Positions 304 to 5,395 of a stretch of 6,260 nt of DNA are shown piece after piece. Positions within the stretch are counted from its first letter, which is position 1. Each line of letters starts with the position of its first letter. A program made the translations under genes and the position numbers. Under the pieces are notes generated by a model. It was given only the letters and a program-made list of their open reading frames with translations, was not told where the DNA came from and did not search any database. The stretch is from a virus (Duplodnaviria; Heunggongvirae; Uroviricota; Caudoviricetes). Location of the stretch: the IMG/VR virus record IMGVR_UViG_2737471848_000012; one strand, written 5' to 3'.

Positions 304-361
304 AAAAAGGGCGGCAGAGCAGTCACGGAGTAAAACTGATACCGCCAAACGTCACCAGAAA
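304..361 (-). ncRNA. dicF: DicF small regulatory RNA (Hfq-dependent, inhibits ftsZ translation), with its intrinsic terminator
   Basis: Reverse complement of 309-361 reads TTTCTGGTGACGTTTGGCGGTATCAGTTTTACTCCGTGACTGCTCTGCCGCCC, followed by TTTTT (reverse complement of 304-308). This matches my recollection of the 53-nt E. coli DicF sequence and its GC-stem plus U-tract terminator. It lies downstream of the three small genes, as in the Qin ydfABC-dicF-dicB operon. Confidence 0.75.
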
Positions 362-1080: not shown

Positions 1081-1236
1081 TCACCCACCTGAATTTCTTT
1101 CCAGCCAGCGACGCGCTCCAGATTCGGTTTTAAACGTTTTGCTTTTGGTATACGTCATCGCGGTGAACGTACCGTCCTGGTTGGGGAACACGCCACATAC
1201 CAGAGATTCGCTGTTGCCAAGATCGATAGTATCCAT
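1081..1236 (-). CDS. ydfA: 51-aa small prophage protein, YdfA/YdaF-like; an alternative upstream start at 1317 would give 78 aa
   Basis: Internal ATG at 1236 with RBS GAGG 5 nt upstream gives MDTIDLGNSESLVCGVFPNQDGTFTAMTYTKSKTFKTESGARRWLERNSGG (51 aa), the size I recall for YdfA/YdaF. The ORF-track start at 1317 also has a GAGG RBS, so the start is ambiguous. Confidence 0.5.
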   Translation of the reverse strand: MDTIDLGNSESLVCGVFPNQDGTFTAMTYTKSKTFKTESGARRWLERNSGG

Positions 1237-1417
1237 GCTGACCTCATTTCCCCTTAACGCCGGGGTAGCGGAACAAAAACCTGCTGCATAGTTATTAAAG
1301 TTGAACCCTGCCGTCATGTTCTTACGCCTCGGGCTGGCTACTTAACCCCTGACCACTGCCTGGTAACTCGAGGTATTGCCCTGTATTGTGTGGGACGGGA
1401 TGGGTTGGTATGGGAAA

Positions 1418-1446
1418 ACTATAGGAAATGCCTAATTACTTGTCAA
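1418..1446 (-). promoter_or_regulatory. Leftward sigma70 promoter (PL-like) for the small-gene/dicF operon
   Basis: On the minus strand: -35 TTGACA (reverse complement of 1441-1446), 17-bp spacer, -10 TATAGT (reverse complement of 1418-1423). The -35 sits inside the 21-bp inverted repeat shared with the rightward promoter. Confidence 0.55.
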
Positions 1447-1459
1447 TAGGCTATGCCTA
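1447..1459. promoter_or_regulatory. Palindromic operator-like site TAGGC-N3-GCCTA (left copy), candidate RacR binding site
   Basis: TAGGCTATGCCTA is palindromic except at its centre and abuts the -35 of the leftward promoter. Extra GCCTAA half-sites lie at 1430-1435 (in the spacer) and 1475-1480. Confidence 0.5.
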
Positions 1460-1554
1460 ATAATTTGGGCGCGACCTAATAGGTGATGGTTTGTGGGAGA
1501 GGTAGTAGGAGTTAACTAACGGGAACTAGGAATTTCCCGTCGGACCATATAAGT

Positions 1555-2031
1555 TTAAGTTCCTGTCTTGGTGATGTTCTGGCTTTTCCGTTTTGATTCT
1601 TGATTTTTCAGATAGTTAGCTACCTTCATTTCCATTGCGGCAATGTAGGCGCGAACGTCATGATCAACCCAACTAGGCTCCGTAGCATTTCCAGATAAGA
1701 GGAAAGCCACAATTGCTCTTTTTTCATCAGAGGCGGCTTGATAAAGGCTGTTTATGTCTAAAAGTTCACTTTTTGTATCTGAAGTGGATGGGGTTGGTAT
1801 GGGGTATTCGTTAAGCCCCCAATGCTCTGGACCAACCACATCAGAAAAGAAACGCCATAGTTCTGGAAGTTTGTCTTTACTTATCGAACCTTTCTTAATC
1901 CAGTCATGGATTGATGGTGGTTGGACTTTGAAATGACGTGCGATTTCCGCCTTTGATTTGACGGCTCCTGATGCAATTTTTTTGTTAATGGCCTGCTCTA
2001 TCGCTCGGCCTAAGTCTTTACCACTAAGCAT
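1555..2031 (-). CDS. racR: RacR-like prophage repressor (158 aa, N-terminal HTH)
   Basis: The 158-aa ORF (MLSGKDLGRAIEQAINKK...) has an N-terminal HTH-like segment (SKAEIARHFKVQPPSIHDWIKKGSI). It is divergent from the Cro-like ydaS and sits between two operator-bearing promoters. Length and sequence match my recollection of K-12 RacR. RBS AGGAGA is the reverse complement of 2042-2047. Confidence 0.7.
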   Translation of the reverse strand: MLSGKDLGRAIEQAINKKIASGAVKSKAEIARHFKVQPPSIHDWIKKGSISKDKLPELWRFFSDVVGPEHWGLNEYPIPTPSTSDTKSELLDINSLYQAASDEKRAIVAFLLSGNATEPSWVDHDVRAYIAAMEMKVANYLKNQESKRKSQNITKTGT

Positions 2032-2085
2032 TGCTTAATAGTCTCCTATGCGCATCGCGTTAGGCAATCCCTACTCTCGATGTGT

Positions 2086-2124
2086 TAGGCATAGCCTATT
2101 GACAATTGTATTAGGCTAAGCCTA
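2086..2124. promoter_or_regulatory. Two palindromic operator-like sites (2086-2098 TAGGCATAGCCTA; 2112-2124 TAGGCTAAGCCTA) in the racR-ydaS intergenic region
   Basis: Same TAGGC-N3-GCCTA architecture as the left site. The first abuts the rightward -35 and the second overlaps the spacer and -10. 2085-2105 is the exact reverse complement of 1440-1460 (21 bp). One more half-site TTAGGC lies at 2060-2065. Confidence 0.55.
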
Positions 2125-2128
2125 ATAT
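2099..2128 (+). promoter_or_regulatory. Rightward sigma70 promoter (PR-like) for ydaS-ydaT and the replication genes
   Basis: -35 TTGACA (2099-2104), 18-bp spacer, -10 TAATAT (2123-2128). The predicted transcription start is about 20 nt upstream of the ydaS ATG. Confidence 0.55.
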
Positions 2129-2155: not shown

Positions 2156-2479
2156 ATGAAAAAAGATAACTATTCATTCAAACGAGCTTGTGCTGTTGTC
2201 GGTGGGCAATCAGCAATGGCTAGGCTTTTAGGTGTATCTCCTCCAAGCGTAAATCAATGGATCAAAGGTGTACGTCAGTTGCCTGCTGAGAGATGTCCTG
2301 CGATTGAACGAGCAACAAAAGGTGGTGTCCTGTGTGAAGAACTTCGTCCTGATGTTGATTGGACATACTTACGACGCTCGTCATGTTATTCGCAGAATAT
2401 GTCGATGAAGCAACCAAATGACGAAAACGATCATACCCGAAGCATCAAGAGGCAAATGATTCATGAAAATCAAACATGA
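2156..2479 (+). CDS. ydaS: YdaS-like Cro/CI-type HTH protein (107 aa); first gene of the rightward operon
   Basis: ATG at 2156 with GGAG at 2144-2147. The ORF-track start at 2135 is a GTG with no RBS. The motif QSAMARLLGVSPPSVNQWIKGVRQLPAERCPAIERAT is typical of the YdaS/Cro-like family, and the gene is divergent from racR as in Rac. Confidence 0.65.
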   Translation: MKKDNYSFKRACAVVGGQSAMARLLGVSPPSVNQWIKGVRQLPAERCPAIERATKGGVLCEELRPDVDWTYLRRSSCYSQNMSMKQPNDENDHTRSIKRQMIHENQT

Positions 2480-2888
2480 GCACATCCGCATGGCGATGAA
2501 TGCCTGGGCATACCCTGATGGTGAGAAAGTTCCTGCAGCTGAAATAGCCCGGACTTATTTCGAACTGGGGATGACGTTCCCTGAACTGTACGACGACAGC
2601 CATCCGGAAGCCCTGGCCCGTAATACACAGAAAATTTTCCGTTGGCTGGATAAAGACACCCCTGATGCTGTTGAAAAAATTCAGGCTCTGTTACCGGCGA
2701 TCGAAAAGGCAATGCCGCCTCTGCTGGTGGCCCGTATGCGCAGCCACAGTTCTGAATATTACCGTGAGATCGTCGAACGGAGGGATCGGCTGGTGAAGGA
2801 TGTCGATGATTTTGTTGCGTCAGCGGTTGTTTTGTATGACCAGATGAATCGCGGCGGCCCGGCAGGGAATGCTGTGGTGATGCACTAA
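2463..2888 (+). CDS. ydaT: YdaT-like protein (141 aa); toxic when derepressed in K-12 Rac, sometimes viewed as a cII analogue
   Basis: ATG at 2463 with RBS AGAGG upstream, overlapping the ydaS 3' end by 17 nt in a different frame. Size (141 aa) and position match K-12 ydaT (about 140 aa). Confidence 0.6.
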   Translation: MKIKHEHIRMAMNAWAYPDGEKVPAAEIARTYFELGMTFPELYDDSHPEALARNTQKIFRWLDKDTPDAVEKIQALLPAIEKAMPPLLVARMRSHSSEYYREIVERRDRLVKDVDDFVASAVVLYDQMNRGGPAGNAVVMH

Positions 2889-2910: not shown

Positions 2911-3873
2911 ATGAGCAGCAAGCTTCATGGTCTTGTCTGGGAAGGGTGCGCCTTCACCGGCATGATCTTATCCAGGGTGGCGGTTATGGCCCGTCTTGCA
3001 GACTACAGCAATGACGAGGGCGTGTCATGGCCTGCCATTGAAACTATCCGGCGTCAGATCGGTGCAAGAAGTGAATCCACAGTGAAATCGGCTATTGCAG
3101 AACTGGCGAAAGAGGGCTGGCTGACGAAGGAAGAGCGTAAGGTCGGTGGGCGTAATGTAAGCAATATCTATCGGCTTAATGTGGAAAAACTCGAAGCAGC
3201 TGCTGCGGCGGCGCGTGAGTCATATAAACCGAAAAGAAAAATTAGCCCGGCAAAAAATGACCCGTTAACAGTTGACCCGTCAAATATTGCCCCCTCAACG
3301 GTTGACCCGTCAAATTTTGATGGATCAACTGTTGATAACAAACTGCCGATTAGGGGGGCGATGATTGACCCCGATCCGTCAGTATTAAAACCTGATCCGT
3401 CAGATAAAAGATCTTCTTGTCCGGACGCTTCGCAACCGGACCCGCAGACGGCTGAACAGAATTTTTTAACCCGACACCCTGACGCGGTTGTGTTCAGTGC
3501 GAAAAAACGCCAGTGGGGAAGTCAGGAAGATTTGGTGTGCGCACAGTGGATCTGGGGACGAATCGTGAGTCTTTACGAGCAGGCGGCCAGCGATGATGGC
3601 GAGATCACGAGACCGAAAGAACCCAACTGGACTGCATGGGCCAATGACGTGCGGACAATGCGGATGCTGGATGGCAGAACTCACAGACAAATTTGTGAAA
3701 TGTTTGGGCGTCTCCAGCGGGATTCGTTCTGGGTAAAAAACATCATGAGTCCGGCAAAACTCCGGGAAAAATGGGATGAACTGGTTATCCGCCTGGGGCG
3801 TTCGCCCGCGCAGCGTTGCGTGAATCACATTTCTGAACCGGACACTGAAATACCGCCGGGATTCAGGGGGTGA
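2911..3873 (+). CDS. ydaU: Replication initiator, YdaU-like (lambda O analogue): N-terminal winged-helix DNA-binding domain, repeat-rich linker encoded by the iterons, C-terminal domain
   Basis: ATG at 2911 with GGGGG 4 nt upstream. The ORF-track start at 2896 is a GTG. The N-terminus (ILSRVAVMARLADYSNDEGVSWPAIETIRRQIGARSESTVKSAIAELAKEGWL) resembles phage replication-initiator winged-helix domains. The linker has repeats TVDPSN x2 and DPS-rich segments. It sits directly upstream of the DnaC-like gene. Confidence 0.55.
   Translation: MSSKLHGLVWEGCAFTGMILSRVAVMARLADYSNDEGVSWPAIETIRRQIGARSESTVKSAIAELAKEGWLTKEERKVGGRNVSNIYRLNVEKLEAAAAAARESYKPKRKISPAKNDPLTVDPSNIAPSTVDPSNFDGSTVDNKLPIRGAMIDPDPSVLKPDPSDKRSSCPDASQPDPQTAEQNFLTRHPDAVVFSAKKRQWGSQEDLVCAQWIWGRIVSLYEQAASDDGEITRPKEPNWTAWANDVRTMRMLDGRTHRQICEMFGRLQRDSFWVKNIMSPAKLREKWDELVIRLGRSPAQRCVNHISEPDTEIPPGFRG
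3258..3413. repeat. Iteron array and GATC cluster inside ydaU-like gene: candidate prophage replication origin
   Basis: Perfect 15-mer GTTGACCCGTCAAAT at 3271-3285 and 3301-3315 (30-bp phasing), each with internal dyad TTGAC-CC-GTCAA. Partial copies at 3258-3270 and 3331-3339. A second pair, GATCCGTCAG, at 3373-3382 and 3394-3403 (21-bp phasing). Four GATC sites fall within 91 bp (3323-3413). An AT-rich tract GAATTTTTTAAC follows at 3459-3470. Confidence 0.6.
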
Positions 3874-3879
3874 CGTGTC

Positions 3880-4620
3880 ATGAAAAACATTGCGGCAGTT
3901 GGGGTTCTTGAACGTATTCGCAGACTTGCACCACAGGGGGCGGTTCCACCGTACCGGACGGTGGAGGAGTGGCGGGAATGGCAACTTGCTGAAGGACGAA
4001 AACGCAGCGAGGAGATTAACCGCCTGAATCATCAGGTGCGGGTTGAAAAAATCCTGAACCGTGCGGGCATCCAGCCGCTTCACAGGAAGTGCTCATTCGG
4101 GAACTACCGGGTGCAGAACGACGGTCAGCGCCATGCTCTGAGCCAGGCGAAATCCATTGCCGATGAATTGATGACCGGATGTACAAACTTCGTGTTCAGC
4201 GGTAAACCTGGTACCGGTAAAAATCACCTGGCAGCAGCGATTGGCAATCGGCTGATGGCGAAGGGGAGAAGCGTGATTATCGTCACCGTGTCCGATGTCA
4301 TGAGCGTGTTGCATGACGGCTACGACAACGGCCAGTCCGGGGAAAAATTTTTACAGGAGCTTTGTGGAGTTGACCTTCTGGTCCTTGATGAAATTGGCAT
4401 GCAGCGGGATACGCGCAACGAGCAGGTCACGCTGAACCAGATAGTCGACCGCAGAACGGCTTCGATGCGTAGTGTCGGAATGCTGACGAACCTGAATCAC
4501 GCAGCGATGAGCACACTCCTCGGAGATCGGGTGATGGACCGTATGACCATGAATGGTGGTCGTTGGGTGAATTTTAACTGGGAGAGCTGGCGGTCAAACG
4601 TTGGACGTCAGGGTATGTGA
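3880..4620 (+). CDS. ydaV: DnaC-like AAA+ helicase loader (YdaV-like, 246 aa)
   Basis: Walker A FVFSGKPGTGKNHLAAAIG and Walker B LLVLDEIG, with overall resemblance to E. coli DnaC. Length equals K-12 YdaV (246 aa). RBS GGGGGTGA upstream; the start follows the ydaU stop by 6 nt. Confidence 0.7.
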   Translation: MKNIAAVGVLERIRRLAPQGAVPPYRTVEEWREWQLAEGRKRSEEINRLNHQVRVEKILNRAGIQPLHRKCSFGNYRVQNDGQRHALSQAKSIADELMTGCTNFVFSGKPGTGKNHLAAAIGNRLMAKGRSVIIVTVSDVMSVLHDGYDNGQSGEKFLQELCGVDLLVLDEIGMQRDTRNEQVTLNQIVDRRTASMRSVGMLTNLNHAAMSTLLGDRVMDRMTMNGGRWVNFNWESWRSNVGRQGM

Positions 4621-4645
4621 GAATTTTTGACGAGGTAAATTTTCG

Positions 4646-5395
4646 ATGGAAACTGTATTGCATGCACTGAAAGCGATGGGAAAAGCCAATTCTGTTGAAC
4701 TGGCGGCGCGGCTTGATATCAGCCGTGAAGAAGTTCTTAACGAACTGTGGGAACTCAAAAAAAATGGCGTTGTTGATAAAACGGGTCACACCTGGTTTCT
4801 GGCTGTCGAAGGTGAAGCCGGGGTAACCGAAGGGCAGGCACTACAACCTGAAGCGCCGGATGTGGTAACCGAAGAGGTCGCTCCAAAAGTTACCGCAGAC
4901 ATGATGGTTGAGTTTATCGGTCAGGATGGTGCTAAAACGTGTGAGGAACTGGCGGGTAAGTTCGGCGTCAGTACTCGCAAGGTTGCTTCCACGCTGGCGG
5001 TGGTAACCGCAACGGGGCGGCTGGCACGCGTTAATCAGAACGGTAAATTTCGTTACTGCATGTCGGGGGGTAATTTACCAGCAGATCCGAAAGCCGCGCC
5101 GGTAACGAAAAATGATGGTAAGGCCTTTCCTCAGCCAGCAGGTGCTGCGTTACCAGTCCGGGAAGCCGCAACACAGGAAGAAATTAAAACAGAAACTGTG
5201 GCGGACATTGTGCAGCCGTTGCTATCGTTTACCGAAACGCAAGCAGATGAGCTGATTTTTCCGTCCCTGCGCAGGGCGAAAAGTGATGTTCAGAAGTGGG
5301 AGCGAGTCTGCGCCGCGCTGCGGGAGCTGAACAAGCACCGGGATATTGTTCGACAGATTACTGATTCTTCCCGCCGTGTTGTATCGGAAAAGTGA
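4646..5395 (+). CDS. 249-aa prophage protein with two predicted winged-helix-like domains joined by Pro/Ala/Glu-rich linkers (DUF1627/YdaW-like?); function unknown
   Basis: ATG at 4646 with RBS GAGGTAA. HTH-like segments SVELAARLDISREEVLNELWELKKNGVV and CEELAGKFGVSTRKVASTLAVVTATGRLARV. Family assignment is tentative and from memory. Confidence 0.5.
   Translation: METVLHALKAMGKANSVELAARLDISREEVLNELWELKKNGVVDKTGHTWFLAVEGEAGVTEGQALQPEAPDVVTEEVAPKVTADMMVEFIGQDGAKTCEELAGKFGVSTRKVASTLAVVTATGRLARVNQNGKFRYCMSGGNLPADPKAAPVTKNDGKAFPQPAGAALPVREAATQEEIKTETVADIVQPLLSFTETQADELIFPSLRRAKSDVQKWERVCAALRELNKHRDIVRQITDSSRRVVSEK

Follow-up and report, generated by a model that had tools for sequence, protein, structure and literature searches.

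A Rac-type immunity switch with predicted RacR operators in two outward-facing promoter cassettes on either side of racR

The stretch of DNA analysed here in full (6,260 nt, referred to as the window) is part of a Rac-immunity lambdoid prophage from a non-K-12 E. coli. In our estimation there is a probability of roughly 85% that the locus around its repressor gene, racR, works as a Rac-type lambdoid immunity switch in which RacR operators are embedded in two outward-facing promoter cassettes, one at each end of the gene. The right-hand half corresponds to a system that has been characterized in K-12. The left-hand half seems, from its sequence and that of related loci, to be the OL/PL analogue expected of a lambdoid switch, and an apparently undescribed part of it.

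The Rac-type locus and its repressor gene

A 951-nt core of the locus is 100% identical to several E. coli chromosomes, and is present at a coverage of at least 80% in 1086 of 5426 complete genomes. In strain A1, which carries an identical locus, the repressor gene is annotated as racR, and the left arm consists of DUF1391-ydfB-ydfC-dicB-ydfD-exonuclease-integrase, adjoining tRNA-Ser. In the window, racR (1555..2031, minus strand) encodes a protein of 158 aa that shares 92% identity with K-12 RacR and passed the cutoff of the NCBIfam equivalog NF049929 (246.8 bits against a cutoff of 200). When RacR was compared with Pfam at E <= 0.001 no family was matched, and hence the protein is without a Peptidase_S24 domain; RecA-stimulated self-cleavage is therefore not expected.

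On the right of racR, the gene order according to Pfam is YdaS_toxin/P22_Cro, YdaT_toxin, an HTH_36 replication protein and a DnaC/IstB-like ATPase, the homologues of the replication genes being labelled O and DnaC-like in phage vB_EcoS-683R6. The first gene of this rightward operon, ydaS (2156..2479, plus strand), encodes a Cro-like HTH protein (Pfam YdaS_toxin, 3.8e-30; P22_Cro, 1e-08), and it is followed by ydaT (2463..2888, plus strand; Pfam YdaT_toxin), a CII analogue. A YdaT-box, ATGATTCATGAAAATCAA, lies at 2456-2473 and is identical in sequence to the K-12 box (PMC11879457). The HTH of YdaS and the N-terminal domain of RacR are 41% identical over 29 aa, including the motif PPS(I/V)xxWIK, a likeness that fits the published competition between YdaS and RacR for the same operators (PMC11014345). 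On the left, the first gene of the leftward operon (1081..1236, minus strand) encodes a DUF1391 protein (Pfam, 5.1e-28) and is ydfA/ydaF-like. The same operon contains the DicF small RNA (309..360, minus strand; RF00039, 76.7 bits against a gathering score of 48), which is the sole match of an Rfam search of the window.

Operators and promoters on both sides of racR

A sequence-only reading of this DNA had drawn attention to an inverted repeat flanking racR. The repeat proved exact over 21 nt: its arms, at 1440-1460 (TTGTCAATAGGCTATGCCTAA) and 2085-2105 (TTAGGCATAGCCTATTGACAA), are perfect reverse complements of each other, with 624 nt between them. Three palindromes of the form TAGGC-N3-GCCTA had also been proposed, and the positions given for them were correct. 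These are the only exact matches in the window (1447-1459, 2086-2098 and 2112-2124), while 200 dinucleotide-preserving shuffles yielded none. As a count of sites, however, three is too low, since about seven are present when weaker ones are included, namely those at 1422-1434, 2061-2073, 2025-2037 and 1466-1478, which had been overlooked. In this regard, when up to 2 mismatches are allowed, 8 matches are observed in the window against 1.68 expected, and 7 of them are grouped at the two ends of racR. The only argument for taking the palindromes as chance or compositional features devoid of regulatory meaning is the general caution that matches to a consensus are not evidence of function. The empty shuffles, the footprints obtained on the right-hand sites (PMC9638921) and the conservation of the palindromes across genera all speak against such an origin, whose probability we consider negligible and which can be regarded as already refuted.

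A promoter scan of positions 1200-2300 returned two sites only, one per strand, which face outward and flank racR, in agreement with the near-consensus divergent promoters that had been proposed. The putative leftward early promoter, a PL analogue on the minus strand, combines TTGACA at 1446-1441 (feature 1441..1446) with TATAGT at 1423-1418 (1418..1423) over a spacer of 17 nt and scores 11/12 matches; its hexamers and their spacing are also found in K-12 Rac. Transcription from it would be predicted to begin ~7 nt past the -10, near 1411 in the window and near 1419619 (minus strand) in K-12, where positions 1400-1500 correspond to about 1419600-1419700 of NC_000913.3. The rightward promoter (PydaS, the PR analogue, plus strand) has TTGACA at 2099..2104, which is mapped in K-12, and TAATAT at 2123..2128 (PMC9638921), with a spacer of 18 nt and 10/12 matches.

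When the left region was reverse-complemented and aligned with the right one, the 21-bp repeat proved to be the upstream half of a cassette of ~45 bp, made up of a site A, an abutting TTGACA, a linker of 5-6 nt and a site B that overlaps the -10. The exact inverted repeat is thus site A plus the -35 of both cassettes. The two copies (right, 2086-2128; left, 1459-1418) lie in inverted orientation on either side of racR and line up position by position through site A, the -35 and site B, with a single 1-nt indel in the linker that accounts for the spacers of 17 and 18 nt. Both promoters are overlapped by several palindromic operators, site B being placed over the -10 on either side, so that its final two bases are the first two of that hexamer (CCTA/TAGT on the left and CCTA/ATAT on the right, with the stroke at the end of site B).

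On the right, site A (2086..2098) is a perfect palindrome, TAGGCATAGCCTA, that abuts the rightward -35 and has TAGGCACAGCCTA as its K-12 equivalent. Site B (2112..2124), also a perfect palindrome, TAGGCTAAGCCTA, lies over the spacer and, as the sequence-only reading had stated, overlaps the -10. Two further sites extend toward the repressor gene: TAGGCAATCCCTA (2061..2073; 1 mismatch, identical in K-12) lies over the racR promoter region, and TAAGCATTGCTTA (2025..2037; 2 mismatches, the same sequence in K-12) over the racR ATG. On the left, the candidate site A (1447..1459) is a perfect palindrome, TAGGCTATGCCTA, abutting the -35, and the candidate site B (1422..1434), TAGGAAATGCCTA, has 1 mismatch, covers the spacer and overlaps the leftward -10. 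The position of the left perfect site upstream of the leftward -35 had been noted correctly, but the geometry that had been called unusual for simple repression is not an anomaly, because site 1422-1434 mirrors 2112-2124 on the right. A putative weak third left site with 2 mismatches (1466-1478) overlaps the palindrome ACCTAATAGGT (1474-1484), both within 1466..1484; their conservation is restricted to Escherichia-type loci. A third left site in the 25-bp register, mirroring 2061-2073, is absent, the only match there being this 2-mismatch site, 19 bp off site A.

Much of the right-hand side is already known. Three GCCTAA/TTAGGC repeats in the 123 bp that separate racR from ydaS in K-12 were pointed out by Krishnamurthi et al. 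(2017, PMC5700373), who demonstrated binding of RacR to this region by thermal shift, ChIP-qPCR and an EMSA with three complexes, and showed that RacR represses ydaS. The TTGACA/TAATAT hexamers of PydaS were established by primer extension and -10 mutagenesis (Wisniewska et al., 2022, PMC9638921; PMC11879457). In addition, three racR promoters were mapped, and the DNase I footprints of RacR on the K-12 intergenic region led to the operator consensus (T/A)TAGGC-n3-GCCTA(T/A); the ydaS promoter holds one such operator, and another has its n3 spacer at the racR ATG (PMC9638921). The K-12 counterpart of 2112-2124 is the first to be protected, at the lowest RacR concentration, and the region of 2061-2073 is protected at higher concentrations (PMC9638921). 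Later work described four inverted repeats and a RacR octamer (PMC11014345, PMC11879457), the latter evidenced by size-exclusion chromatography (PMC11014345), while YdaS was reported not to repress racR (PMC9638921). RacR binding and repression on the right side have, in sum, been shown for K-12, by EMSA, ChIP, DNase I footprinting and reporters (PMC5700373, PMC9638921). The operator motif proposed from the sequence equals the published consensus (PMC9638921) and is consequently not new; the motif, the right promoter and the analogy with lambda are all known from PMC5700373, PMC9638921 and the later RacR papers.

The palindromes are retained between the window and K-12 Rac throughout the racR-ydaS region, with sites centred at ATG-87, -61, -36 and 0 in both. 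Measured from the racR ATG, the half-sites of the two prophages coincide in sequence and place; TTGACA-18-TAATAT is shared as well, and six strong or medium sites and two promoters are common to them. The N3 spacers, in contrast, are CAC and GTC in K-12 and ATA and TAA in the window, and the left arm of K-12 Rac carries ydaG-ydaF-kilR, whereas that of the window carries Qin-type dicBF genes.

The kil gene of Rac was reportedly identified by Conter et al. in 1996. We found no description of a left RacR operator or promoter in the literature; an earlier account in that study, in EcoCyc or in RegulonDB is possible. Sites or a promoter downstream of racR are mentioned neither in the RacR literature (PMC5700373, PMC9638921, PMC11014345, PMC11879457 and the racR CRISPRi papers) nor in the Jobling letter (PMC5917428), the KilR paper (PMC12482147) and the OxyS paper (PMC5793797). 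The left-arm genes ydaG, ydaF, kilR, ydaE and racC of K-12 have been found to rise 40-70 fold upon a fall in RacR (PMC6765115), and the same genes are up after racR CRISPRi (bioRxiv 10.64898/2026.09.06.749655). This derepression could also follow an indirect route via YdaS/YdaT, prophage excision or copy number.

Conservation of the cassettes among RacR homologues

The conservation of the architecture was assessed in two sets of loci. The first comprises 12 loci for which similarity to the RacR protein was the only selection criterion; they come from contigs of one genome per species and are free of pattern ascertainment bias. A downstream outward-facing cassette (GCCTA-TTGACA plus a second site 25 bp on) is present in 9 of the 12: four Escherichia-type loci, Mixta, a Pseudomonadota MAG, Proteus and two Achromobacter. 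Where a full-length RacR-type gene is combined with a short gap between repressor and PL, as in loci from Escherichia, Mixta, Proteus and a Pseudomonadota MAG, the downstream cassette occurs in all cases (7/7). No left cassette was found within 2.5 kb in loci L010, L012 and L014.

The second set of 120 loci was added by a pattern scan of viral contigs. The pattern contained site A and TTGAC, and hence their conservation in one of the cassettes of each contig is due to ascertainment. What counts as independent evidence in this set is the second cassette and site B, which were not selected for. Over 135 loci, two cassettes flank a RacR homologue in 82. The 45 distinct PL and 58 distinct PR sequences have nearly invariant half-sites and hexamers, with variable N3, linkers and flanks. 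The leftward TTGACA is kept at 5/6 bases or more in all 45 distinct PL cassettes, this hexamer being itself among the criteria by which they were detected. Left site A is perfect or has 1 mismatch in Escherichia, Mixta, Proteus, Klebsiella phage and Achromobacter-type loci, which is also the threshold used for detection, and its N3 varies. Left site B occupies the same position in every PL cassette of the other loci. The centre-to-centre separation of the left and right pairs is mostly 639-641 bp, as in most Escherichia loci, and reaches up to 2.6 kb where extra genes follow the repressor gene. A single cassette with no RacR homologue was present in 23 viral-contig loci; by a rough estimate, chance matches to a pattern with 15 specified bases would be of that same order in the viral collection.

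Both cassettes are likewise present in the complete Klebsiella phage KpF5, in which the repressor gene and PL are separated by a DUF450 gene, and in the partial record of Escherichia phage vB_EcoS-683R6. In other genera, TAGGCAATGCTTA takes the position of the racR-ATG site. The half-sites are retained in K-12 Rac and in RacR loci across genera, and the OL/OR-like layout with the repressor gene between the two promoters is supported on the right by published work and on the left by the comparison of loci.

In all homologues, residues 1-77 of RacR are highly conserved. They are the only part that the Achromobacter-type repressors (350-366 aa) and an Aeromonas one (225 aa) have in common with RacR, the C-terminus of these proteins being a Peptidase_S24 domain (1.2e-13 in the 366-aa protein of L055; 5.7e-15 in the 225-aa protein of L014). 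Despite the S24 C-terminus, the operator layout is kept in the Achromobacter-type loci; the Aeromonas locus, L014, has 2-mismatch sites only. As judged from these alignments, the operator motif tracks the N-terminal HTH domain of the repressor.

These comparisons bear on the idea that the left copy is a non-functional relic of a duplicated or recombined right operator-promoter, and that RacR acts at racR-ydaS only. A relic would decay, and this disfavours the idea, since the left cassette is kept across genera at a repressor identity of 54-64%, even with a different C-terminal domain; its half-sites, -35 and -10 are preserved, whereas N3, the linker and the whole of the flanking sequence are no longer alike. 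The cassette moreover still heads the leftward operon where 1.4-2.3 kb of other genes separate it from the repressor gene. In line with a relic, published RacR work concerns the intergenic region only and ascribes the octamer to its four inverted repeats (PMC11014345, PMC9638921), and no Escherichia-type locus has a perfect left site B. On balance we find it very improbable that the left copy is a relic.

The promoter-proximal half of left site B reads A/TCCTA in place of GCCTA in Escherichia-type loci. As this site is imperfect in every one of them, repression at the left promoter may be weaker than on the right, or dependent on cooperativity.

Proposed regulation and relation to other lambdoid switches

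The findings presented here allow a model in which RacR dimers would bind the 13-bp palindromes TAGGC-N3-GCCTA of both cassettes. The right cassette, PydaS, would drive the cro-like ydaS, the cII-like ydaT and the replication genes; the left one, as PL analogue, would drive the DUF1391-ydfB-ydfC-dicF-dicB operon in the prophage of the window. At both early promoters, RacR on site B is expected to keep RNA polymerase from the -10 and spacer, and site A, centred near -43, would probably act as a cooperative stabiliser of binding at site B. The sites at 2061-2073 and 2025-2037, which lie over the racR promoters and start codon, would provide for autoregulation of racR. We infer RacR binding at the left sites, the activity of the left promoter, cooperativity and any OL-OR loop; repression on the left is likewise an expectation drawn from the architecture, its conservation and the precedents of PL933P and dicBp.

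It could be argued that the left sites serve mainly as a distal loop anchor, or as a roadblock to racR read-through, rather than as a simple occlusion operator. Left site A, although perfect, is placed upstream of the -35 and is unable to occlude the core promoter; in addition, racR is transcribed in the same direction as the left operon and is not separated from it by a canonical terminator. In lambda, OL participates in looping or long-range repression. The OL of CP-933P has been implicated in the same type of control (PMC8630535), and RacR is octameric in solution (PMC11014345). In every cassette, however, site B overlaps the -10, an arrangement classical for occlusion, and the leftward hexamers (11/12, with a 17-nt spacer) are conserved; both observations argue that the left promoter is real and in need of repression. 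Looping and occlusion, besides, are not mutually exclusive. A role of the left sites mainly as anchor or roadblock seems to us unlikely.

Several elements around the left cassette were considered as well. Between racR and the left promoter the terminator scan detected no intrinsic terminator, and the stability of the 105-nt region is not unusual (z = -0.68). Folding predicts a hairpin at 1519..1540 (minus strand; stem 1519-1525 / 1534-1540) that begins 12 nt past the racR stop and shows one compensatory G-C to A-T change between Rac alleles. It has no T-run and the terminator scan makes no call on it; it could act as a weak terminator of racR or as a stabiliser. A structured leader RNA of the put- or nut-like type at 1237-1412 (minus strand), downstream of the left promoter, was rejected, as its fold is no better than that of shuffled sequences (z = +1.53).

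A more far-reaching version of the operator model, to which we would give slightly less than even odds, takes the left cassette as a true OL/PL. A RacR octamer would then join 1422-1459 to 2086-2124 in a loop of ~0.64 kb, which would tighten repression of both arms and set the autoregulation of racR; repression of the left arm would depend on cooperativity, given that the site overlapping the -10 is always imperfect in Escherichia. In this version the ~45-bp cassette and the 77-aa HTH domain would also form a portable specificity unit, joined in the course of evolution either to a non-cleavable oligomerisation domain, as in RacR, or to an SOS-cleavable S24 domain.

The layout is in many respects that of lambda. 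In both, two outward early promoters enclose the repressor gene and are each overlapped by multiple palindromic operators at centre-to-centre distances of ~25 bp; the rightward genes begin with a cro-like and then a cII-like one; and the repressor-proximal operator overlaps the repressor's own promoter and ATG. The DUF450 gene of KpF5 takes the position that rexAB has in lambda. The differences concern the operators, of 17 bp in lambda against a core of 13 bp for RacR, their number, which in the window is 2 (possibly 3) on the left and 4 on the right, and the distance between OL and OR, ~2.4 kb in lambda and ~0.64 kb in the window. Lambda furthermore has an N gene and nut site, neither of which was found in the window system, and repressors of the CI/LexA type have the Peptidase_S24 domain that is absent from RacR.

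Two other prophages offer precedents for the left side. CP-933P (PaaR2/YdaS/YdaT) shares with the window its gene order and an octameric repressor, and its promoters are PR933P, PRM933P and PL933P, the last of which is repressed by PaaR2 and YdaS (PMC8630535). By analogy, CP-933P is a direct experimental precedent for the left-side control that we infer in the window. Its operators are 18-bp palindromes with the consensus GTTTAGTAA, its repressor differs from RacR and, unlike in the window, a toxin-antitoxin pair is co-transcribed with the repressor gene. In Qin (DicA/DicC/dicBp), a non-SOS repressor acts on a leftward promoter that drives ydfABC-dicF-dicB (PMC10448788), dicBp being repressed by DicA (PMC10448788). 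There too, operators are found on both sides of the repressor gene, and the cargo operon has its homologue in the window, behind the left promoter. The specificity of repressor and operators is another one in Qin, whereas in the window RacR-type operators precede the same kind of operon.

Taken together, these results indicate that the feature is real, probably functional and rightly interpreted, and that it is an ordinary lambdoid immunity region. The direct value is modest: the map of the Rac switch is completed, a reading of the sequence alone proved able to recover a published operator motif, and the cassettes from different genera offer naturally varied operator sequences for tests of RacR specificity. 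Current RacR papers place an octamer on four intergenic sites, with the second pair of sites, 0.64 kb off, unmentioned. If RacR does act on the left sites, half of the system would escape experiments done with the intergenic fragment only, the octamer might serve to loop the DNA as in lambda, and the toxic genes of the left arm, kilR in K-12 and dicB and dicF in the prophage of the window, would be under direct control of RacR.

Cargo of the leftward operon

Downstream of the RacR-type left promoter, on the minus strand, lie the genes of a DUF1391-ydfB-ydfC...dicB operon (703-1236) together with the DicF small RNA (309-360; Rfam, 76.7 bits). In K-12 Rac, the corresponding position is held instead by ydaG-ydaF...kilR. 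On the basis of this gene order, Rac immunity in the window prophage would govern a Qin-type dicBF cell-division-inhibitor operon.

As racR is read in the same direction as the left operon, read-through from one into the other must be limited by something. No canonical terminator was found between them. A hairpin with a 7-bp stem (1519-1540, minus strand) begins 12 nt past the racR stop; it lacks a T-run, and Rac alleles differ in it by a single compensatory change, from G-C to A-T. Additionally, the palindrome ACCTAATAGGT (1474-1484), with inverted half-site-like arms and a 1-nt centre, is located between the left operator and the racR 3' end, and is kept in Escherichia-type loci only. An exact 13-nt direct repeat, CCCATACCAACCC (1402-1414 and 1791-1803, minus strand), has a chance expectation of 0; the first falls where the leftward transcript is predicted to begin, and the second within the linker-coding region of racR. 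This repeat may be a recombination scar.

Asymmetry between the left and right operators

The left site overlapping the -10 (1422-1434) has a mismatch at base 1 of its promoter-proximal half-site, which is always ACCTA or TCCTA in the PL cassettes of all Escherichia-type loci, whereas its right-hand counterpart is perfect in every case. This pattern suggests a difference in repressor affinity built into the two promoters. Four sites lie on the right in Escherichia Rac (2025-2124), with their centres at ATG-87, -61, -36 and 0, while other genera (L007-L013, L015, L019, L036, L049 and L069) have three, at ATG-60, -35 and 0; Escherichia looks to have one additional site unit of ~26 bp here.

Elements of the rightward operon

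The YdaT-box ATGATTCATGAAAATCAA (2456-2473) lies across the ydaT start codon and does not differ from the box footprinted in K-12 (PMC11879457). Further downstream, repeated GTTGACCCGTCAAAT units (3271-3285 and 3301-3315) are contained in a 33-nt imperfect inverted repeat (3267-3333) inside the HTH_36 replication-protein gene. Together with the CCNGATCCGTCAG repeats (3370-3403), these units form a probable origin or iteron region, comparable to that of lambda, whose ori lies within the O gene.

A possible accessory gene and repressor C-termini in related loci

In Klebsiella phage KpF5 (L136), a DUF450 gene (3649-4803) separates the left cassette from the gene for the RacR-like repressor; it occupies the place of rexAB in lambda and may be an accessory or defence gene expressed in the lysogen.

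The repressors L055:3195-4295 and L014:2501-3178 (the latter from Aeromonas) have only the N-terminal ~77 aa in common with RacR and end in a Peptidase_S24 domain, and those of L011, L013, L061, L090, L093 and L095 belong to the same class. Achromobacter-type loci with S24 repressors show TAGGC-N3-GCCTA operators and the two-cassette layout seen around racR; in L014 only sites with 2 mismatches are present. Thus, a single HTH/operator specificity is joined to C-termini of two kinds, one SOS-cleavable and the other non-cleavable.
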